Positions 24,294 to 63,890 of a stretch of 64,000 nt of DNA are shown here, in pieces (positions within the stretch are counted from its first letter, which is position 1; every line of letters starts with the position of its first letter). The position numbers and the translations under genes were made by a program. The notes under the pieces were generated by a model, which saw only the letters and a program-made list of their open reading frames with translations, had not been told where the DNA came from and did no database searches. Source of the stretch: an uncultured bacterium (GTDB lineage Bacteria; UBP4; UBA4092); the NCBI GenBank assembly GCA_963768165.1, contig CAVYHJ010000002.1, positions 128,676 to 192,675 of the forward strand, read 5' to 3'.

Positions 24294-24406
24294 AATAAAA
24301 AATATGTCCCGATATGAGAATCGGGAATAGATGTGGAAGAGGTTCCCGACGTCACAAAATAATTCTTCTACAAATGCAGAATTACTCCCCTTGGCTGAAA
24401 TCCGCC

Positions 24407-39843: not shown

Positions 39844-41151
<1,308 letters not shown>

Positions 41152-42037: not shown

Positions 42038-42146
42038 CCCCAATATTGGTTCGTTTGATGAAAAAGGGATGGGATTTAAGATTTAGAAGAGAATTAATTC
42101 GTTGGAAGGCGTCGGGAAATCCATTTCATTCCATTCCCGATGTATC

Positions 42147-42975: not shown

Positions 42976-43047
42976 ATCGGACGTGTTATTTTCACGTCCG
43001 ATTTTTCTGCGTCGGGAATGAAGTGTTTTTTAAGGATTTCCCGACGC
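42976..43047. repeat. Two adjacent hairpins: CGGACGTG-N7-CACGTCCG, followed by hairpin family B copy 2 (GCGTCGGGAA-N19-TTCCCGACGC).
   Basis: Read directly. They lie immediately 3' of the aminotransferase gene stop (minus strand). Confidence 0.6.
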
Positions 43048-50496: not shown

Positions 50497-51444
50497 TTAT
50501 TTTTTTATAAATTGCCGATAAAGCTCATCAGAAACCGTATACGGGTCAAGCTCTTTCCGTTCTATTTTTCCAATGAACTGCTTCACGCTAGCGTTTTTGT
50601 AAAAGTTTCTCAATATATCATTAACGGCGGTATTTTTCAAGCATTCCAGTACTTCTGCCATGACCTGTTCCCGCCGTCGAACTTCCAATTCTTCCGATTG
50701 GGAAAGTTCTTCCAAAACGTCTTGGATGGATTGGTAAAGCTTCTCTATTCCATCCCCAGTTATTCCCGAAACGGAAATGATTTTAGGGATTTTCTCGTCC
50801 GCGGGTTTCAGGTGATATTTCATTTCCAATTCCCGAAACACTAAGGTTGATTCTGGTTTATCGGATTTATTCACTACCAGAATATCCCCAATATCTACAA
50901 TACCGGATTTGGCGAATTGGATAGAGTCCCCCGAACCCGGACCGAAAACGACTACAGTCATATCGGCGACATCTTGAATTTCGATTTCATCCTGACCCGT
51001 GCCGACCGTCTCGATTAAGAGAATGTCAAAACCGGAGATATCCAGAGCGTGGAGAATCGGTCGAATGGTAGAAGTTAATCCCCCACGATGAGCCCGGCTC
51101 GCCAGACTACGAATGAAGACCGCATCATCTGCCGCATGTCTCTGCATTCGGATTCGGTCACCCAACAATGCTCCACCGCTCACGGGACTGGTCGGGTCAA
51201 CAGCAGTGACAGCAACCCGTTTCCCGTCTTTGCGGAAATGCTCAATTAATTTATCTACAAGAGTAGATTTCCCGACACCGGGTGGACCGGTAATCCCAAT
51301 CTTTTTGGCGTTGCCGGTTTTGGAATAAAGCTTTTTTAGCTTCTCAAACCCTTGAGGATTCCCGTTTTCCAAAAGGCTGATGAGTTTCGGCAACTCCGAT
51401 GGAGATAATACAGGAATGGGATTTTTTTGTTTGGGCTTAGACAT
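50497..51444 (-). CDS. meaB: Methylmalonyl-CoA mutase-associated G-protein chaperone (MeaB/ArgK).
   Basis: P-loop GITGPPGVGKST and the MeaB-type switch regions. The likely start ATG at 51444 overlaps the upstream gene's stop as ATGTCTAA, which suggests translational coupling. The ORF track extends to 51492. Confidence 0.8.
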   Translation of the reverse strand: MSKPKQKNPIPVLSPSELPKLISLLENGNPQGFEKLKKLYSKTGNAKKIGITGPPGVGKSTLVDKLIEHFRKDGKRVAVTAVDPTSPVSGGALLGDRIRMQRHAADDAVFIRSLASRAHRGGLTSTIRPILHALDISGFDILLIETVGTGQDEIEIQDVADMTVVVFGPGSGDSIQFAKSGIVDIGDILVVNKSDKPESTLVFRELEMKYHLKPADEKIPKIISVSGITGDGIEKLYQSIQDVLEELSQSEELEVRRREQVMAEVLECLKNTAVNDILRNFYKNASVKQFIGKIERKELDPYTVSDELYRQFIKK

Positions 51445-51832
51445 TTTTCTTGACGAATTCAACAATCTCATTGAGCGAACTCCCGGGACCAAAGATTTCC
51501 TTAACGCCCAGTTTCTTCATCTCTTTGATATCTTCGGGCGGAACAATCCCTCCGGCAAAAATTAAAATATCCCGTGCCTTTTCTTTTTTTAATAAATCAA
51601 TCACGTTCTTAAACGCCGTGCGATGCGCTCCCGACAAGGACGATAAACCAATGGCATCCACGTCTTCCTGAATGGCAGTCCGCACCACCTGTTCGGCAGT
51701 GTTCCGAATCCCGGTATAAATAACTTCCATGCCCGCGTCACGCAAAGCTTGGGCAACGACCATGGCTCCGCGCTCGTGTCCATCAAGACCGGATTTGGCG
51801 ATTAAAACCTTTATCGGCTTGCTTGTTTTCAT
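51437..51832 (-). CDS. Methylmalonyl-CoA mutase B12-binding subunit (stand-alone C-terminal domain).
   Basis: DGHERGAMVVA cobalamin-binding (DxHxxG) motif in a 131-aa stand-alone protein. Confidence 0.85.
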   Translation of the reverse strand: MKTSKPIKVLIAKSGLDGHERGAMVVAQALRDAGMEVIYTGIRNTAEQVVRTAIQEDVDAIGLSSLSGAHRTAFKNVIDLLKKEKARDILIFAGGIVPPEDIKEMKKLGVKEIFGPGSSLNEIVEFVKKNV

Positions 51833-51945
51833 CCAACAGATTATAGCATTGAGTGAGAAGATGTTAAATCAGTTAAATAGGTTATATAGGGCGTTGGTGA
51901 TATTATTTATTGGGGGAAATCAGGTGAAAGCTTATATTTTCTTTA

Positions 51946-52929
51946 TTAAGCAGGGAATCTTTGTATCCATGGAACATCTTTTGAGAACACACCTGGATTC
52001 CAACCGACTGCAGGTAACAAATCACCCAACGCTGATGCCAATTGTTCAAGTTTATGTTGTATAGCATTGTCATAGTGTGCTATTTCTTCACTTTCAGAAT
52101 TCAAAACACCAAATACAATACCTCTACCTTTAATGGGAACAACAATTTCCGATTTAGTCTCGATTATGGCTTGAAAATAATTTGATCTTTCATGGACATT
52201 ATTGGCATTTACTGTTTTCCCAGAAGAATACGCCAAACCTAATAAGCCTGCAAATGTGGCTATACGATATCTTTGTTTATGACGGGGAATCATATCTGCC
52301 ACAGCTACAAGTTGACTAGAATATGCAGATGTAATTATCAAAAATATCTGATTGTAGTCTGTTTCTGTAGTACGTACCAATTCATGTAAAGCAATCTCTA
52401 GAAGTTCAACCAAGTCACCCGAATTCTTTAAAAGATTAATATAAGAATTTTGTAATGTGTCAGGAGGATTTACTTGAGAAAGATATCTACCAATTGATGT
52501 TGCAATCTTAAATGCTAAATCTTCAGGGAATGTAAATTTATCATACATTAAATTCTTTCCTATTCGTGATTTAAAGGATTGCAATTTAGATTTACCCGGT
52601 TCATTTTCAATCATTTTGGGTGGCCAAGGATATTCATCATTAACAATAAAACAAAAGATGGGTTTTTGTAATTTCTTTGCATAATTATATTCCTGTTCAG
52701 TGATTGATAATTGTGTATCAGGTAATATATATCCATATCTATATGCATATATACCAACAAACAAATCACAGGATTCAATCTCTTTAAAACAAACCTGTAT
52801 TGGTTCCACCGGACGCGCACCTAATACCTCCATTCTGCCAAGATGATATCCTAGACGTTCTAAAGCCTCTGCTGCAGCTTTTCGATATTCTTTCAAGTCA
52901 ATATATGTAGAACTTAGAAATACATTCAT
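51946..52929 (-). CDS. DUF4062 (TIR/flavodoxin-like) N-terminal domain fused to a C-terminal GAF-like domain. It is the first gene of an AT-rich island.
   Basis: VFLSSTYIDLKEYR...SCDLFVGIYAYRYGYI matches the DUF4062 core. The C-terminal part has a GAF-like pattern (VFGVLNSESEE). About 33% GC. Confidence 0.5.
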   Translation of the reverse strand: MNVFLSSTYIDLKEYRKAAAEALERLGYHLGRMEVLGARPVEPIQVCFKEIESCDLFVGIYAYRYGYILPDTQLSITEQEYNYAKKLQKPIFCFIVNDEYPWPPKMIENEPGKSKLQSFKSRIGKNLMYDKFTFPEDLAFKIATSIGRYLSQVNPPDTLQNSYINLLKNSGDLVELLEIALHELVRTTETDYNQIFLIITSAYSSQLVAVADMIPRHKQRYRIATFAGLLGLAYSSGKTVNANNVHERSNYFQAIIETKSEIVVPIKGRGIVFGVLNSESEEIAHYDNAIQHKLEQLASALGDLLPAVGWNPGVFSKDVPWIQRFPA

Positions 52930-53027
52930 ATATTATTCATTTTTTGAGGTTGAAGTTCTACTGAAACGGAGCCAAGAAATGAAGTTTGAAATGAAATCTA
53001 TGTTATTCAATCTTTGACAGAACATAA

Positions 53028-53510
53028 TTAGATTAACTTATATGGAAAGAGTGTCTTATTCTCTTTATCCTGAAACACCTTATCACTATATAAGCCAAAT
53101 ACTTGTACTAATTGTTGTTGGCTAAATATAGCGGCTTTATTTAGACCCCATGTACCACCTCGACCTTTACTAAGATATTTGAAATCAAAATAACTAATTT
53201 TATAAATATCTTTAATCTCATTAGTTTCCCACATCATAGGAAGCCATGTGCCCTGCCATGGGTCAAGACCAACGATATGGAGTACTCTATAAATATCCTC
53301 ATCTTTTTTAGGAAAATTGTATGTAATATGCAATCTTCCATTATTACAATTCCTGCATAAATGCACCAATTTATCTTGGTTCCATCCATTTACATAAATA
53401 TCATCCCATAAAAAATAATAGATACTTATATGATTACATACTTCTTTAAAATTATTTATTCGATTATGTCCATAATCACATGTATCACATTCCCACCAAT
53501 AGCCAGCCAT
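53028..53510 (-). CDS. Hypothetical Cys-rich (putative zinc-ribbon) protein in the AT-rich island.
   Basis: CDTCDYGH and CRNCNNGRLH CxxC pairs. No recognised family. Confidence 0.4.
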   Translation of the reverse strand: MAGYWWECDTCDYGHNRINNFKEVCNHISIYYFLWDDIYVNGWNQDKLVHLCRNCNNGRLHITYNFPKKDEDIYRVLHIVGLDPWQGTWLPMMWETNEIKDIYKISYFDFKYLSKGRGGTWGLNKAAIFSQQQLVQVFGLYSDKVFQDKENKTLFPYKLI

Positions 53511-53582
53511 GTATTAACACCTTATTCTGTTGAGTGATGCGTTGCGAAATATAACCTGCCTCATTCTTGACATTGAAAAATA

Positions 53583-54404
53583 TTAGGTTACCTCTTGTGA
53601 TATTAACCTTAGAATAGAACCAGTTATATATAAATAGAATTCAACCAATCTTGGTTCAGGATTAGTCGGTATTTCTTGTTTCTTTTTTCCGTGTCGTGAG
53701 GAATATTCATGAGCAATTTTGCAATAGTGATGTAATATTTGACCCCAATGGCTATCAAGATTCAATTTTTGAATCAATTGATAGATTAATTTCTCGTCAT
53801 CAAGTGATTTGTTGGTTTGCAATATTGCTTTAACTATCCCTTCTAAAGCACTATATAAATTTGTAATTGCATCAGAATAATTATTTCTCAAATAAAAATT
53901 TAAAGCATTGGAGTATTTTTCTCTGCTATCTGGAAATTTGTCCAGCCATGCTAAATTTTCAATTATCAAAACGTCATCAAGTTCTGTAGCCCCTGACTTA
54001 ATAATATTTTTACCATCAAATCTAAAACCTATATTCAATACCATAGAATCGAATACATTTTTTATTTCAGATGAAAAATATTTGAACGCTGATGAAGAAC
54101 CTTGTTCCTGTTCAGATATATATGAATGAGAAATACTTAAAATCGCATGTAAAAGTATCATATTTTTTTCTATAGATCTATCGATATCTTGATAGTTGTT
54201 AATTAAATTTGTAAAGAACTCACCTGTTTTTGAACTCGGTAAGCCTAGTGTGAAAACCACTTGTTTATATAATCGTGAATAATTATGCATCCAATAGGTA
54301 TTGTCATGGTCTAATATGATTCTCAATCTATTCTTGAATCTTTCATATTCTTCTTCTAAATCCGTTTCAATTCCTAGATTTTTATAAATATTTTTTAAAC
54401 TCAT
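53583..54404 (-). CDS. Hypothetical 273-aa protein in the AT-rich island.
   Basis: ORF only. It has the same orientation and low GC as its neighbours. Confidence 0.4.
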   Translation of the reverse strand: MSLKNIYKNLGIETDLEEEYERFKNRLRIILDHDNTYWMHNYSRLYKQVVFTLGLPSSKTGEFFTNLINNYQDIDRSIEKNMILLHAILSISHSYISEQEQGSSSAFKYFSSEIKNVFDSMVLNIGFRFDGKNIIKSGATELDDVLIIENLAWLDKFPDSREKYSNALNFYLRNNYSDAITNLYSALEGIVKAILQTNKSLDDEKLIYQLIQKLNLDSHWGQILHHYCKIAHEYSSRHGKKKQEIPTNPEPRLVEFYLYITGSILRLISQEVT

Positions 54405-54556
54405 AATATTTCATTTATTCCCTTGTGTTAGAAACAAAGTAAATTTCTTAACGCTCTATTATACTGGATTCCAATTTGCATGGGAATGACAAAAGAGAAC
54501 TAACAAGGTCGGAAACAATTCAGATTAGAAATTGGATGGCAGATTAAAAAATGCTG

Positions 54557-54584
54557 TTGACAAAAAGGAAATTGGATGTATAAT
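54557..54584 (+). promoter_or_regulatory. Near-consensus sigma70 promoter (TTGACA, 16-bp spacer, TATAAT) in the island-edge noncoding region. No plus-strand ORF lies downstream of it.
   Basis: Read directly. It is followed by the 16-bp palindrome ATCATTTTAAAATGAT (54595-54610). Confidence 0.45.
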
Positions 54585-54630
54585 TTAAAGACAAATCATT
54601 TTAAAATGATGATAGTTGCATAAAAACAGT

Positions 54631-54663
54631 CATCGGGAAAGAGAAATGTGTTCATTCCCGATG
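54631..54663. repeat. Hairpin family B variant (CATCGGGAA-N15-TTCCCGATG).
   Basis: Same stem core, CGGGAA/TTCCCG, as the other three copies. Confidence 0.5.
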
Positions 54664-54839
54664 TGATTGGATGTTAAATTTAGTATAAGATGAAATTAGT
54701 TTGGGTGTGGAAATAGTTTAAAAGTGATTAAAAAGGGTAGTTTTGAGGGGTTTTTGTAAAAAAGCTACCTGCTCTCCTCGATAAGGACATTCGAGGACAA
54801 GTTTACAGTTTCAATCTAATCAATCCTCTATAAGGCAGG

Positions 54840-54865
54840 GATGAAGGAGATCGATCTCCTTCATC
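54840..54865. repeat. Perfect 26-bp palindrome GATGAAGGAGATCGATCTCCTTCATC.
   Basis: Exact reverse-complement symmetry. Confidence 0.9.
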
Positions 54866-54910
54866 CCAACTCCGCTTCATCTCCGTTTCTCCTCCGTTTC
54901 AAGTACGCTT

Positions 54911-54965
54911 CAGGTTCGTTTAAAAACCAGTTTAAGGTTTAAAGTTTAATGTTTACGGTTAACAG
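54911..54965. repeat. Iteron-like array of about 6 tandem GTTTAA(N) heptamers.
   Basis: GGTTCGTTTAAAAACCAGTTTAAGGTTTAAAGTTTAATGTTTACGGTTAAC shows a 7-bp periodicity. Confidence 0.6.
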
Positions 54966-55064
54966 AGGGGAGATAAGGGAAAGGATATTGGGAGAGGGCC
55001 GAAACAGAGAGACATTTTGGAGGGTTTGATGAATCAAACCCCTACAATTGGGTAGAAGAGAAGA

Positions 55065-56597
55065 TTAGAGAATGGTTGGGGGATGGTATTCGCCAAAAAG
55101 GGAGCGGAGGAGGGTGCAGATTTCACCCAAAGTGACTTTGTTTTTGACGGATTCTATAAGGATGGGCATTAAAGTGTCCGCAGTGCGGACACTTTTTTCC
55201 AATTTATCGAGACTTTGGTTGACTTTTTTCATATCCCGATTTTTTTTGAATTTAAGAACGCGTAGGCGTTGTTCTTTTTCGATTTTGAGATTTAATTTAA
55301 AGAGGGGAGGGTTGGAATCTTTTTGGGATTGGAAGGCATTGAGTCCCACAATGATTTGTTTTTTTGATTCGACCGCTTTTTGGTAATCATAGGCAGACTT
55401 GAATATTTCTTTTTGGACGTACCCGGATTCAATGGCTTTCAACATTCCACCCATTTGGTCAACCTTGGCAATATATTCGTTGGCTTCCCGTTCCAAGGTA
55501 TCGGTCAATTCTTCCACATAAAACGAACCTCCCAAAGGGTCGGGTTCATGGGTAACGCCTGATTCATAAGCGATGACTTGTTGAGTGCGAAGAGCAAGGA
55601 GAACGGAATTTTCCGTGGGCAGACCGAGGGCCTCATCTTTTGAGTTTGTATGCAGAGATTGACACCCGCCGAGAACCGCCGCGAGAGCTTGTAGGGTTGT
55701 ACGGACGACGTTGTTATCGGGTTGTTGCGCCGTGAGCGTGGAACCGGCAGTTTGGACATGAAAGCGCAAGAGTTGAGCGCGTTTCTCTTTGACCTTAAAA
55801 CGATGTTTGAGAATCTTCGCCCACATCCGGCGAGCGGCACGGAATTTGGCGACCTCTTCCAAGAAATTATTGTGGCAATTGAAAAAGAAAGCTATACGTT
55901 GCGCAGCGTGTTCGATGTTGACGCCGGCTTTTTTGGCAGCAGTGAGATAGGCGATGCCGTCCGAAAGCGTGAAAGCGAGTTCCTGCGCCGCGGTCGCACC
56001 CATTTCGCGCATGTGATACCCGCCGACACTGATAGTATTCCATTTGGGAACGTGCTGAACGCAAAATCCAACGAGGTCGGTAATCAGGCGGAGCGAAGGT
56101 TCGGGCGGGAAGATATAGGTGCCGCGCGCGATGTATTCTTTGAGAATATCGTTTTGAGTGGTGCCGGAAACTTTGTCCCAAGAGACTTTTTGTTGGTCAG
56201 CAACAGCGAGATAAAATGCCAACAAAATAGACGCGGTAGAGTTGATGGTCATGGAGGTAGAAACTTTATCAAGAGGGATGCCATGGAACAAGGTTTCCAT
56301 ATCTTCGATGGTGGAAATCGCGACCCCAACCCGACCGACTTCCCCTTTTGCCATGGGGTGGTCGGAGTCGTACCCGATTTGGGTCGGGAGGTCAAAGGCG
56401 ACGGAGAGCCCGGTTTGTCCCTGCTTGAGGAGATATTTGTAGCGAGTGTTGGATTCTTTGGCGTCACCGAACCCGGCGTATTGGCGCATAGTCCAGAGTT
56501 GTTTTTTGTACATCTCCGGATAGATACCGCGGGTGAAGGGGAATTCGCCGGGAGAGCCAATGTTCCAGTTGTGGTTTCGTTTTTTCATATATGCCAT
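55065..56597 (-). CDS. Methylmalonyl-CoA mutase catalytic (large, N-terminal TIM-barrel) subunit.
   Basis: The [24 protein letters not shown] and other MCM substrate-binding-barrel motifs. It is separated from its B12-binding partner by the AT-rich island. Confidence 0.9.
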
Positions 56598-56602
56598 AAT
56601 TT

Positions 56603-56697
56603 TGTCATTACGAGCGCAGCGAAGTAATCTCGTTTTTATTTTCTATTGACGCTTTAGAATGAGATTGCTTCGTCGCTACGCTCCTCGCAATGACAAA
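56603..56697. mobile_element. MITE-like element family F, copy 1 (about 95 bp). Termini TGTCATTACGAGCGCAGCGAAG...CTTCGTCGCTACGCTCCTCGCAATGACAAA form an imperfect inverted repeat.
   Basis: It fills the whole gap between the MCM start and the GIY-YIG stop. Homologous copies lie at 56999-57093 and 57592-57705. Confidence 0.55.
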
Positions 56698-56988
56698 TCA
56701 TAATATTTCTGCAAACAAATCCTGCCATTCAGGGTTTATGCTATTTACTAAATCAATCTTCTTCTGTCTTGAACCCGCCTTAATCTGTTTTTCGCGTTCG
56801 ATAGCCTGATCAATATAATCGTATTCTTCATAATAGACTAATTTATTCACATTATATTTTTTGGTAAATACACTTCCATGCTTTTCTTTATGTGAATCAA
56901 CCCTGCAATCCAGATTATTAGTTACACCCGTGTAAAGAACCGTATTGCGTTTGTTAGTCATAATATAAATATAGTAATTTCTACTCAT
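56698..56988 (-). CDS. Small GIY-YIG nuclease family protein.
   Basis: YYIYIMTN...LYTGVT...R...H N-terminal GIY-YIG motif in a 96-aa stand-alone protein. It is flanked on both sides by family F elements. Confidence 0.8.
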   Translation of the reverse strand: MSRNYYIYIMTNKRNTVLYTGVTNNLDCRVDSHKEKHGSVFTKKYNVNKLVYYEEYDYIDQAIEREKQIKAGSRQKKIDLVNSINPEWQDLFAEIL

Positions 56989-56998
56989 AGCAACTGTT

Positions 56999-57093
56999 TG
57001 TCATTACGAGCGCAGCGAAGTAATCTCGCATTTATCATCCATCATCACTTTAGAACGAGATTGCTTCATCGCTGCGCTCCTCGCAATGACAAA
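56999..57093. mobile_element. MITE-like element family F, copy 2.
   Basis: TGTCATTACGAGCGCAGCGAAGTAATCTCG...CGAGATTGCTTCATCGCTGCGCTCCTCGCAATGACAAA. A short terminal fragment CGCAATGACAAAA also occurs at 57137-57150. Confidence 0.55.
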
Positions 57094-57167
57094 TAAAAAG
57101 ATTACCATCCTCTACATGACAAGTAAAGGCTATACCCGCAATGACAAAATAAAAGAAATTTTGTTCC

Positions 57168-61119: not shown

Positions 61120-61920
61120 ATGTTTGCAAAAATAATTACCGGATTTTTCTGGGACAGTTACGACAATTTGGGAAAGCTCTTAGTGGCGAATTTGGTTTGG
61201 TTTTTGTGTAACCTGCCAGGATTTATGTTGGGGTATGGGATATTTCATATACCCTTGAATCTATTTTGGATTTTTCTACTGCTCCCGTTTGCGTTATTTT
61301 CTGTTACCACTATGGGGCTGTATCATTTCACATCTCTCCTTGTAGAACAAAAGCAAATTGGAGTAAAAGAATTATTTCTCGGCATGAAAAAATACGGCGT
61401 GAGAGGAACTTTATACTCCTGTGTGCTTGTTTTGGGATTTTTTGTTTTATTGGTCAATATCGATTTTTATCTGAATCTATCGTTAGGATTTCACTGGATT
61501 GGCGCGATACTAGGGGGATTTGCTTTTTGGGTCAGTTTATTTATATTATTGGTTTGTCAATATTTTTTCCCGATATTAGTCAAACAGGATTTACCGATTA
61601 AAAAACTGTTATTGCGCTCCTCTCTTTTGGTTTTGGACAATTTCGGAATTAGCCTGTTGATTGCATTGAACTCACTGGGATTATTGATATTGACCATCAT
61701 AACCGGCGTAGGACCGATCCTGTTTACCATGTCTTTGTTTACCTTATTTGCCAACAACGCATTATATGAAGTACTGGCGAAATATGATAAACAACCGCAA
61801 CCGACCTTAAAACCGGGAGAGAAACCAACATCCTGGCATCAAATTTTGCCTAAAGAAAAGCCCAAATGGCGACATGAAAATCGAGGTTGGAAAGATATCT
61901 TACGACCTTGGGATATGTAG
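61120..61920 (+). CDS. Hypothetical integral membrane protein (about 6 TM helices; DUF624/YesL-like, uncertain).
   Basis: Hydrophobic helices only. Its stop codon TAG lies inside the family A palindrome. Confidence 0.45.
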   Translation: MFAKIITGFFWDSYDNLGKLLVANLVWFLCNLPGFMLGYGIFHIPLNLFWIFLLLPFALFSVTTMGLYHFTSLLVEQKQIGVKELFLGMKKYGVRGTLYSCVLVLGFFVLLVNIDFYLNLSLGFHWIGAILGGFAFWVSLFILLVCQYFFPILVKQDLPIKKLLLRSSLLVLDNFGISLLIALNSLGLLILTIITGVGPILFTMSLFTLFANNALYEVLAKYDKQPQPTLKPGEKPTSWHQILPKEKPKWRHENRGWKDILRPWDM

Positions 61921-61944
61921 AGACGTAACATATTACGTCTCTAC
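61917..61944. repeat. Family A palindrome, copy 4 (GTAGAGACGTAACATATTACGTCTCTAC, with one central mismatch). It supplies the stop codon of the upstream gene and is followed by TTATTG.
   Basis: 27 of 28 positions match the other copies. Confidence 0.85.
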
Positions 61945-62532
61945 TTATTGACATCCTACCGGACGCCACTCATACGGGTCTGAATGTTTTTGTGAACGCC
62001 AGATATTTCCGAAACTAACTGTTCCATTACTGGGGTCGTACTCAATGACACTATCACACGGATTCACATCAGGGGAATCTGTGGCATTATTCCAATAAGA
62101 ACCATCCGGTCCAATGGAACACATGCGCCAATCCCCATAAGCGTCCAAATAATCTTGGGTATATTCATCCCAAATCAGATTATGATAGGTATAAACAGCT
62201 TCATCGGCTGCCGTTCCAGGTTGTTTAAAGGGATCGAGGGGACGGGCGTTGGTGACATAGGCAATGGGGGTGCTGATGGTGATAGGGAGAATCCCTTGGG
62301 GGTCATTAGGAATCGGGTCATTGGGATAGGGCGTGGTCAAGGGATAATCATTGTTGTCTACTTCGTAGGCTTCGACTGCCGTAGCCATGGTTTGTAATTC
62401 TGCACGAACCCGTGCCACTTTAGCCCGTACCTGCGCTGCCAAGAAATTGGGGATAGTAATGGCAGCGAGAATGGCGATAATAGCTACCACGATAAGCAAT
62501 TCAATTAAGGTAAAACCTTTACTCTGTTTCAT
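61945..62532 (-). CDS. Prepilin-type N-terminal cleavage/methylation domain protein, a paralog of the 41255..41800 gene.
   Basis: GFTLIELLIVVAIIAILAAITIPNF class III signal. Downstream segments (IAYV..PLDPF, YDPSNGTVSFGNI) are shared with the other copy. Confidence 0.8.
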   Translation of the reverse strand: MKQSKGFTLIELLIVVAIIAILAAITIPNFLAAQVRAKVARVRAELQTMATAVEAYEVDNNDYPLTTPYPNDPIPNDPQGILPITISTPIAYVTNARPLDPFKQPGTAADEAVYTYHNLIWDEYTQDYLDAYGDWRMCSIGPDGSYWNNATDSPDVNPCDSVIEYDPSNGTVSFGNIWRSQKHSDPYEWRPVGCQ

Positions 62533-62659
62533 TTTAGATTATTTAAGTATAGCTCACTTTATACCATATTGAGGGGGTGCAGGATAAGACAGAAATAAAT
62601 TAAAGCATTGCAGATTTTAAATTGTAGATTTAAAAGACTAGAAGATAATTGAAGGAAGT

Positions 62660-62688
62660 CGTCGGGAAATCTACTACACTTCCCGACG
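62660..62688. repeat. Hairpin family B copy 3 (CGTCGGGAA-N11-TTCCCGACG).
   Basis: Read directly. It lies 30 bp 3' of the Kelch gene stop. Confidence 0.6.
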
Positions 62689-62717
62689 CTTTAAAACGGG
62701 GGCAACATTCATTTGTG

Positions 62718-63890
62718 TTACTTTGATTTGAGGTCGAGCACCCAGACATCATTCAGTGAATGATCAGAAGCAGTAACGCCTCCAAAGATAGTCATCCGAT
62801 TTTTGGTAGCATCGTAGACCGCAGTATGAACGCTTCGCCCCGCCGGAGGCTTTCCTCCCGGAAAAATCTGTGTCCAAGCGAAAGTCTTTCCCAGTCCATT
62901 GGCATGGCTGAGCACCCAGACATCATTTAGAAAGGATCCATTATCTCCGCCAAAGACAATCATCCGATTATTGGTAGCATCATAGACCGCAGTAGGCAAT
63001 TGTCGTCCCGATGGGAGACGTCCGGTTCCGGTCGGAGAGAGTTTTGTCCAAGCGGGCGTTCCTCCCAGTCCATTGGCATTGCTGAGCACCCATACATCAT
63101 TCAGATAACTACTACCATTCCAACCCCCAAAGATCGTCATCCGATTATGGTCAGCATCGTAGACGGCAGTATGGGCGTATCGTTCTGCCGGGAGACCATT
63201 GCTAGGATCAGGATTCGGAGTGAGCTTTATCCAAGCAGGCGTTCCCCCCAGTCCACTAGCATTCCTAAGTACCCATACATCATTCAGTAAACCTGAAGAA
63301 CCATTATTATTACTACCCCCAAAGATAATCATCCGATTATTGGTAGCATCGTAGACGGCAGTATGAGCATAGCGTATCTCTGGAACATTTCCGGTTGGAG
63401 AGAGTTGTGTCCAAGTGGAAGGAGTTTTATCCCGTCCATTGGCATTGCTAAGTACCCACACATCATTCAGACGAGTATCATAATTAGTCCCCCCAAAGAT
63501 AATCATCTGATTATTGGCAGTATCGTAGACGGCAGTATGATGTTGTCGCACTGGCGGAGGTTCTCCTCCCGGAAAGATCTGTTTCCAAGTGGGAGTTTCT
63601 TCCAGCCCATTAGTATCGCTGAACAACCACACATCCCCCAAAAAGTCGCCATTACTATGAGGCCGTCCGCCAAAGATCGTCATCCGATTATTGGTAGCGT
63701 CGTAAACCGCACTATGGCCGTATCGTGTGGTTGGGGGTTCACCTGCCGGAAAAAGTTGTTTCCAAGCGGGAGTTTGTGCCTGTGTTACATTGGTTTTCCC
63801 CGAGTTCATTGGCTGTGCGGAACACCCACATATCAAGGAGAGAAAAAAGATCGCGCTAGCTAAAACAAGATTGTTATATTTAAAAAACAT
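62718..63890 (-). CDS. Kelch-repeat beta-propeller lipoprotein.
   Basis: Lipoprotein signal LSLICGCSA, and seven or more Kelch-like repeats (YGHSAVYDATNNRMTIFGG...NDVWVL). The preferred start is ATG 63890 with an AAGGGAGGTG RBS. The track start is 63941. Confidence 0.7.
   Translation of the reverse strand: MFFKYNNLVLASAIFFLSLICGCSAQPMNSGKTNVTQAQTPAWKQLFPAGEPPTTRYGHSAVYDATNNRMTIFGGRPHSNGDFLGDVWLFSDTNGLEETPTWKQIFPGGEPPPVRQHHTAVYDTANNQMIIFGGTNYDTRLNDVWVLSNANGRDKTPSTWTQLSPTGNVPEIRYAHTAVYDATNNRMIIFGGSNNNGSSGLLNDVWVLRNASGLGGTPAWIKLTPNPDPSNGLPAERYAHTAVYDADHNRMTIFGGWNGSSYLNDVWVLSNANGLGGTPAWTKLSPTGTGRLPSGRQLPTAVYDATNNRMIVFGGDNGSFLNDVWVLSHANGLGKTFAWTQIFPGGKPPAGRSVHTAVYDATKNRMTIFGGVTASDHSLNDVWVLDLKSK

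Follow-up and report, generated by a model that had tools for sequence, protein, structure and literature searches.

Plasmid centromeres are built of short direct repeats, such as the 11-bp ParR iterons of R1 parC and the 7-bp omega heptads of pSM19035, and a partition centromere is expected upstream of a parA/parM-parR or delta-omega operon, as well-conserved repeats of about 17-22 bp in helical phase are expected of an iteron origin. Other described systems in which short repeats or hairpins occupy noncoding DNA are the type III toxin-antitoxin loci, whose ToxI-type repeats, with units of about 34-36 nt, directly precede the toxin gene on the same transcript with only a terminator between them, and the repetitive extragenic palindromes and bacterial interspersed mosaic elements (REP/BIME), dispersed intergenic copies that share a stem sequence. 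Here, a 660-bp noncoding region (positions 54405-55064) is compared with these systems. It lies in a 64,000-nt stretch of DNA, referred to as the window, from an uncultured bacterium of the UBP4 lineage (assembly GCA_963768165.1, contig CAVYHJ010000002.1). The best explanation, in which we place moderate confidence, is that the 660 bp form the composite, largely generic untranslated right-hand edge of a 3.2-kb mosaic islet lodged between the two subunit genes of a methylmalonyl-CoA mutase. The grounds are the anatomy of the region, the insertion itself, the families to which the elements belong, and the lack of coding or known-RNA signals. The region adds a further example to kinds of element that are already known.

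The genes for the large and the small mutase subunit, mcmL (55065-56597) and mcmS (51437-51832), both on the minus strand, are separated by 3,232 bp, and in the two nearest relatives (L091 and L092, 72% amino acid identity) only 15 bp lie between the stop of the former and the start of the latter. The gene order in these relatives is epimerase, mutase large subunit, the 15 bp, small subunit and MeaB, and the subunit genes are also adjacent in several of the best matches in the genome collection. Because the relatives keep the subunits 15 bp apart, the entire stretch 51833-55064, including the 660-bp region, is an insertion into the mutase operon. The identity of the large subunit is firm (Pfam, E = 1.5e-212), and beyond the islet the minus strand continues with the B12-binding small subunit and MeaB. 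The genes of the insertion have a GC content of 26-38%, the flanks one of about 44%. The noncoding region has mcmL upstream and the minus-strand gene of a 273-aa HEPN/Abi_C protein downstream, and in this tightly packed window no noncoding gap is longer. A second small insertion is seen in the same operon, where a GIY-YIG gene of 96 aa (56698-56988) sits between the epimerase gene and mcmL. It is bracketed by a 107-nt direct repeat of 86% identity (56601-56707 and 56997-57103), so that the region upstream of mcmL has been duplicated; in the relatives the epimerase gene overlaps the mcmL start.

The three genes of the islet (Table 1) are best described as unrelated accessory or defence-type genes, and the islet as a mosaic, since homologues of the HEPN and the 160-aa proteins occur singly and in unrelated contexts. 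The HEPN protein has only seven distant homologues among 5.8 billion proteins; in the three contigs examined their genes belong to other restriction or defence neighbourhoods, and the gaps upstream of them measure 15-211 bp. The 160-aa protein belongs to a tiny family of 10 homologues (37-43% identity), which in the two contigs examined are solitary genes near toxin-antitoxin genes. Neither a long upstream region nor shared palindromes were present at the examined loci of these two families. DUF4062, a domain of the third protein, has been described as a TIR-like defence NADase of antiphage systems (10.64898/2026.05.01.722283; 10.64898/2026.06.25.731849), and no RNA partner for it is mentioned in these two preprints of 2026 or in a third (10.64898/2026.09.04.749371).

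Table 1. Elements of the islet and of its noncoding edge, with related copies elsewhere in the window.
Feature	Position	Strand	Details
Whole insertion	51833-55064	-	660-bp noncoding region and three low-GC genes; GC 0.26-0.38
DUF4062-GAF gene	51946-52929	-	Profile matches
160-aa orphan gene	53028-53510	-	N-terminal CxxC...CxxC motif
HEPN/Abi_C gene, 273 aa	53583-54404	-	Faint Abi_C match; PADLOC PDC-S32 (1.8e-8); Csx1/Csm6 HEPN model
P(-), TTCCCA-17-TATAAT	54458-54486	-	10/12; 54 nt upstream of the HEPN/Abi_C start codon
AAATTGGATG boxes, two exact	54529-54538, 54569-54578	+	Only exact copies in 64 kb
P(+), TTGACA-16-TATAAT	54557-54584	+	Divergent from P(-); no ORF or leaderless start downstream
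16-bp perfect palindrome ATCATTTTAAAATGAT	54595-54610		Spans about +4 to +19 of a transcript predicted from P(+); operator-like position
Family-B hairpin	54622-54663	-	CATCGGGAA-N15-TTCCCGATG (54631-54663), then ACTGTTTTTATG on the minus strand
GATGTTAAAT	54670-54679		Repeated at 51860-51869, the opposite islet end; 10-bp match, weakly significant
Two hairpins	GGTAG...CTACC 54735-54770; CCTCGA...TCGAGG 54776-54796		Where GC climbs from about 31% to about 43%
Perfect 30-bp palindrome GGGATGAAGGAGATC/GATCTCCTTCATCCC	54838-54867		Single copy; no U-tract on either strand
Short tandem repeats	54866-54965	+	3-4 CTCCGTTTCnn units, then heptads
Purine-rich block and hairpin GGGTTTGAT-GA-ATCAAACCC	54966-55041	+	Ends 24 nt from the mcmL stop; no U-tract
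Terminator-like hairpin AAAGTGTCCGCA-G-TGCGGACACTTT, then TTTCC	55171-55200	+	Antisense, inside the mcmL 3' end; dG -14.2
Other four family-B copies	24321-24349, 42112-42140, 43012-43044, 62662-62686		Each edging a low-GC segment

An earlier, sequence-only reading had placed the region at an island edge and had held it to be no simple spacer, and on both points it was right: the region adjoins an inserted low-GC islet that splits mcmL from mcmS, it is the longest noncoding gap of the window, and its symmetry is beyond chance. Perfect inverted repeats were counted at a stem of at least 8 and a loop of at most 20, with 500 dinucleotide shuffles as control and the window cut into 192 tiles. The region holds four such repeats against 0.33 +/- 0.58 in the shuffles, none of the 500 reaching four, and only two of the tiles hold as many. 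The other 660-bp tile with four repeats, within 62041-63030, overlaps the gap 62533-62717, where a family-B hairpin (see below) and a 14-nt tandem repeat are found, and also overlaps a Kelch-repeat gene with 183-nt internal repeats. The elements named in that reading are likewise in place, namely the consensus promoter without an ORF behind it, the 16-bp palindrome, the family-B hairpin and the hairpin at 55022-55041; the perfect palindrome, given as 26 bp (54840-54865), in fact extends to 30 bp. The array of about six tandem heptamers (54911-54965) also exists, although weaker than proposed, with 4.4 copies of GTTTAAG at 54930-54960 according to Tandem Repeats Finder (TRF).

Nothing in the region resembles a gene or a described RNA. 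No ORF exceeds 33 aa on either strand, all six frames are closed by stops, and the six-frame translations matched no Pfam family that would betray a decayed gene. Rfam 15 gave no match at gathering thresholds in the whole window, and under permissive settings the best E-value was 0.1, to miRNA and snoRNA models and caused by the palindrome. The window contains neither tRNA nor tmRNA, and therefore no tRNA att site. The region shows no similarity to other parts of the window, and no blastn match was obtained among 72,556 plasmids and 50,697 phages. The sole other copy, on a Logan contig of ERR11523654 (L001), comes from the same organism and differs by one single-nucleotide polymorphism (window position 54510) in 442 bp.

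The islet-proximal part of the region (about 54405-54700) is AT-rich, with a GC content of about 30%, and carries two predicted promoters, P(+) and P(-), arranged back-to-back and 70 bp apart. P(-) is the likely promoter of the islet genes. P(+) matches the consensus in 12 of 12 positions, the only such match in the 64 kb. About a third of the sigma70 matches of at least 10/12 fall in the intergenic DNA that makes up only some 8% of the window, and several lie 4-18 nt ahead of start codons. As these matches concentrate in intergenic DNA, and often just upstream of starts, P(+) is probably real; its hexamers have a spacing within the 16-18 bp of sigma70-type promoters, a consensus evidently used in this genome. 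Several other genes of the window have a -10-like hexamer 4-20 nt ahead of the start codon, which suggests that leaderless or short-leader mRNAs are frequent in the genome. At the left end of the islet, TTAACA-16-TATAAT (51840-51867, 11/12) lies 8 nt before the mcmS ATG, which has no Shine-Dalgarno sequence, and this suggests that the islet end supplies the promoter for mcmS-meaB.

The AAATTGGATG boxes, which lie within a 22-nt imperfect direct repeat and are spaced 40 bp apart, flank the -35 hexamer of P(+) and fill its spacer. A third, near copy is located at 54666-54675 and an inverted TCCAATTT at 54470-54477. The boxes are candidate operator sites and, together with the 16-bp palindrome, probably bind a repressor. 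The 160-aa islet protein was considered for this role and rejected: its AlphaFold model is confident (pLDDT 82) and has no significant match in the PDB, the best being PC4/Sub1-like (E = 0.26).

Downstream of P(+) follows the hairpin of family B. On the minus strand, the stem-loop read from 54663 to 54631 contains G+C in its stem and is followed by the U-tract ACTGTTTTTATG, the composition of an intrinsic terminator, and the minus-strand fold of 54590-54700 is better than that of shuffles (z = -3.2). It therefore looks like a terminator or insulator against transcription arriving from mcmL. Five copies of the pattern TCGGGAA-N11-19-TTCCCGA are present in the window, where 0.02 are expected, all of them between genes, with an invariant 7-bp stem and mostly 7-33 nt past a stop codon, so that family B behaves as a REP-like family of dispersed intergenic copies with a common stem. 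In the alignment of the family, 96.7% of the cells are paired and 7 of 10 pairs invariant, and the one double change, in the copy of the 660-bp region, is not above shuffles. At least seven copies are carried by IMGVR_UViG_3300032401_002140, a viral contig of similar GC that also bears an integrase, and identity to a copy in the window reaches 91% over 47 nt. Next to the other four copies of the window, the low-GC segments contain genes that are pilin-like (N_methyl), of DUF805 or unannotated, and one pilin has a weak ComP_DUS match. A function of family B as a DNA uptake sequence of the DUS type was rejected, single copies being only 2-4 times enriched.

These same hairpins invite a different explanation, in which the symmetric elements are targets of recombination or insertion (REP/BIME- or attC-like hairpins) that would account for the site at which the islet integrated, and the GATGTTAAAT pair is a target-site duplication. 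A direct repeat of 10 bp at both islet ends, a position of every window copy of family B at the edge of a low-GC segment, and the recurrence of the hairpin in a viral contig with an integrase would all agree with such targets. However, chance would yield about 0.2-0.5 matches of 10 bp between two AT-rich ends, and the hairpin is found inside the repeat-bounded segment rather than at its junction. Neither terminal inverted repeats nor a transposase or integrase were detected in the islet, and the genes in the other low-GC segments are not obvious cassettes. Although the GATGTTAAAT pair is a possible target-site duplication, the explanation as a whole is unlikely. GATGTTAAAT was also compared by eye with dif/Xer sites, and its arms do not fit.

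A separate palindrome of the window, the perfect 28-30-bp GTAGAGACGTAACATGTTACGTCTCTAC, is present in four copies between gene ends (709-736, 1329-1358, 39844-39871 and 61917-61944), one of them exactly separating two convergent stop codons. In metagenome contigs (L126-L220) of 32-59% GC, which have nothing else in common with the window, it has at least 95 exact matches, and some termite-gut contigs share longer flanks around it. Its distribution suggests a REP-like or mobile palindrome that is widely dispersed.

The distal part of the region (about 54700-55064) has a GC content of about 43%, and its plus strand is strongly skewed towards purines and G. Its 30-bp palindrome has a core without match in viral or metagenome contigs, and since L001 terminates inside it, at window position 54846, there is no second, independent sequence of it; the break is probably due to the palindrome disrupting k=31 assembly graphs. 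The palindrome is followed by about three copies (2.9) of the 11-nt unit CTCCGTTTCnn at 54870-54901 (TRF score 43, 80% matches), which had no match in viral contigs, and by the GTTTAAG array (TRF score 41, 83% matches), in which four good GTTTAAN heptads (54930-54956) are flanked by degenerate units. Exact matches of 20-26 nt between the 55022 hairpin and three viral contigs were dismissed as coincidental, one being in signal-peptide coding sequence and the others in unrelated hairpin clusters.

The heptads, in turn, lead to phages. Eight viral contigs contain the 20-mer GTTTAAGGTTTAAAGTTTAA exactly, and each has one to four GTTTAAR or GTTTCAG arrays. These arrays are intergenic; some, for instance, come shortly before baseplate-hub, tail-sheath and tape-measure genes, at a distance of a few nucleotides, and others directly follow stops. 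The background is low, as unrelated DNA from bacteria and metagenomes contains a single array in 1.45 Mb and the remainder of the window has none, and the hairpin-B viral contig, picked without regard to heptads, also has GTTTAAA and GTTTCTA arrays after stops. One contig (L123) has seven arrays in 15 kb. For a head protease (L098) and a tape-measure protein (L100), the best matches in the phage database are phages of Bacteroidota hosts. From these occurrences, the heptads are read as phage-type intergenic punctuation. Across the IMG/VR contigs L096-L103, L110 and L123, the units are GTTTAAR, GTTTCAG and GTTTCTA, three to six per array and with one to seven arrays per contig, and the phage arrays place TAA stops in all frames. 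No relevant description of four 13-mers of the heptad repeat was found in the literature searched. In a 510-bp noncoding region adjacent to the integrase of the hairpin-B contig, hairpin B, heptads, a purine-rich stretch and a start codon succeed each other on one strand; the plus strand of the window downstream of P(+) has the same motifs in the same order and orientation, but no gene follows. Because in the integrase-bearing contig this order of motifs precedes genes, the distal part is most likely a relic leader.

The sequence-only reading had seen in the repeats an origin or partition site, and this is not borne out. The idea that repeats and palindromes are the iterons or the centromere of a mobile element, active or relic, takes its appeal from ten NGTTTM cores in the same orientation (54873-54958), whose spacing is at first about 11 bp and later 7 bp, with one inverted copy forming the 30-bp palindrome, and such 11-bp and 7-bp direct repeats resemble ParR- and omega-type centromeres. 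However, only 11-nt and 7-nt units are present, few and imperfect, and TRF scores of 41-47 are met about every 3 kb in the window. Family searches of the islet proteins revealed no rep, par, relaxase or integrase gene; no Rep-like domain was found in the three islet genes or the flanking genes, and the genes downstream, which encode the HEPN/Abi_C, 160-aa and DUF4062-GAF proteins, gave no ParA, ParM or RHH match. The blank search of plasmids and phages also speaks against it. The window has one heptad array, whereas phage contigs have up to seven, dispersed at gene boundaries and unlike a single cis site, which argues for a role different from that of a centromere present once per replicon. 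An origin or centromere is thus very unlikely, and palindromes and short repeats at island edges should be checked against genome-wide and phage-wide repeat families before they are read as either.

The position of the phage heptads, 2-25 nt upstream of start codons, could also be taken to mean that the region encodes micro-proteins, either of 33 aa (54841-54942, plus strand) with AAGG 5 nt before its ATG, or of 26 aa (54949-55029, plus strand), which starts within the heptads. The start and the AAGG of the former are, however, buried in the 30-bp palindrome, neither has family matches, and ORFs of such size are expected by chance, which makes micro-proteins highly improbable.

A plus-strand noncoding or antisense transcript from P(+) is plausible. 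Inside mcmL, a stem-loop at 55173-55193 is followed by TTTTTTCC, as in an intrinsic terminator, and this hairpin, among the strongest terminator-like sites of the window, is the possible 3' end of a P(+) transcript of about 610 nt. One explanation of the region is a functional noncoding RNA, which could regulate the split mutase operon or act with the HEPN gene. In a long form it would run about 610 nt from around 54591 to 55171-55200, antisense to the mcmL 3' untranslated region (UTR) and the last 135 nt of mcmL; in a short form it would end after hairpin B, at about 80-90 nt. This is consistent with the unique 12/12 promoter and its operator-like palindrome at +4, and with the lack of any intervening plus-strand terminator-like site before 55173-55200. 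The terminator-like hairpin is moreover lineage-specific and not imposed by conserved codons, as L091 and L092 encode different residues at the site and lack the hairpin in the same codons. The fold of 54590-55064 on the plus strand has a z-score of -2.7. However, the fold scores of the region (-2.7 and -3.1) surpass shuffles only to a moderate degree, differ little between the strands and stem almost wholly from the perfect palindromes, and a long-range hairpin that would enclose the heptads (54866-54995) was discarded as no better than shuffles (z = -0.8). There is no Rfam match and no homologue, hence no covariation, and HEPN homologues elsewhere lack such an upstream region. As the window contains one other equally strong antisense terminator-like site within a gene, the one in mcmL may have arisen by chance. 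A functional RNA is the main alternative, a tentative and less probable one; were the plus-strand RNA real, a host operon would have an antisense regulator carried by the islet.

The composite islet edge remains the preferred explanation, and from its parts we infer promoter and terminator activity, repressor binding and a relic origin as follows. The family-B hairpin with its minus-strand U-tract would stop read-through from mcmL, after which P(-) would drive the HEPN/Abi_C gene, while the back-to-back P(+) would fire the opposite way. A repressor may occupy the AAATTGGATG boxes, in which both promoters are embedded, and the 16-bp palindrome just downstream of P(+). The distal part would be a spacer of the phage or mobile-element type, composed of hairpins and of tandem repeats of 11 and 7 nt. 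It was probably once the leader of a plus-strand gene, was orphaned when that gene disappeared at the insertion boundary, and may now be transcribed as mcmL 3' UTR, as P(+) RNA, or both. Several points weigh against this scheme. The promoter, terminator and operator activities are predictions, and no recognisable DNA-binding fold was found among the islet-encoded proteins. The idea of a relic leader rests on motif order in a single viral contig, the GC of the distal part is host-like, and the 30-bp palindrome finds no explanation. Finally, the collections contain no close relative of the genome, and the nearest mutase relatives, 63% identical in the genome collection and 72% in the protein database, are beyond comparison at the nucleotide level.

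If this explanation holds, the locus illustrates that a metabolic operon can be interrupted by a small defence-type islet and still be workable: at one end the islet supplies a terminator-like hairpin together with promoters of its own, and at the other a new promoter situated 8 nt ahead of mcmS. Two bolder possibilities, which even jointly are decidedly unlikely, would go further. Either a structured RNA of about 610 nt couples the split mutase operon or the HEPN activity to the islet, in which case the transcript, driven by the consensus promoter, would arise where the defence islet borders its host operon and would stop at a terminator that is lineage-specific and evolved within the mutase gene. 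Or hairpin B and the GTTTAAR heptads constitute an undescribed punctuation code, which would be common to a bacterial lineage and its phages and borrowed by the islet; a phage factor recognising these motifs could, for example, switch the islet on during infection.

Compared to the described systems, the locus shares some traits with each. Like the parC and omega centromeres and the iteron origins, it has short repeats in one orientation, spaced at 11 and 7 bp, as well as one inverted copy, but it has no par or rep genes, each repeat type comprises only three to four imperfect units, and the heptad type is dispersed in phage contigs. As in ToxI-type type III toxin-antitoxin systems, an abortive-infection-type gene is preceded, on its own strand, by tandem repeats and a terminator-like hairpin; the units are, however, 7-11 nt long instead of about 34-36 nt, the toxin would be HEPN-like and not ToxN-like, the repeats are 460-560 nt upstream with a terminator and the separate P(-) between, and the homologues lack an array. 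With excludon-like cis-antisense RNAs it has in common a strong promoter aimed at the 3' end of a neighbouring operon gene and an antisense terminator-like hairpin inside that gene, although here these are predicted and P(+) could be the leftover of a lost gene. The islet-proximal part resembles the divergent repressor-controlled promoters of defence, toxin-antitoxin and mobile modules in its back-to-back promoters, in the boxes overlapping one of them, in the palindrome at the transcription start and in the HEPN/Abi-type gene directly downstream; it differs in having no regulator gene on the divergent side and no recognisable DNA-binding protein in the islet. As regards REP/BIME and terminator-like intergenic hairpins, the 30-bp palindrome and the 55022 hairpin depart from the pattern in being single-copy, and family B in being present also in a phage-like contig. 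In other respects family B follows it closely, as a multicopy element with an invariant stem and a variable loop that mostly lies past stop codons, in a genome that has a second such family (a GTAG...CTAC palindrome in four copies) and many long perfect palindromes at gene ends.

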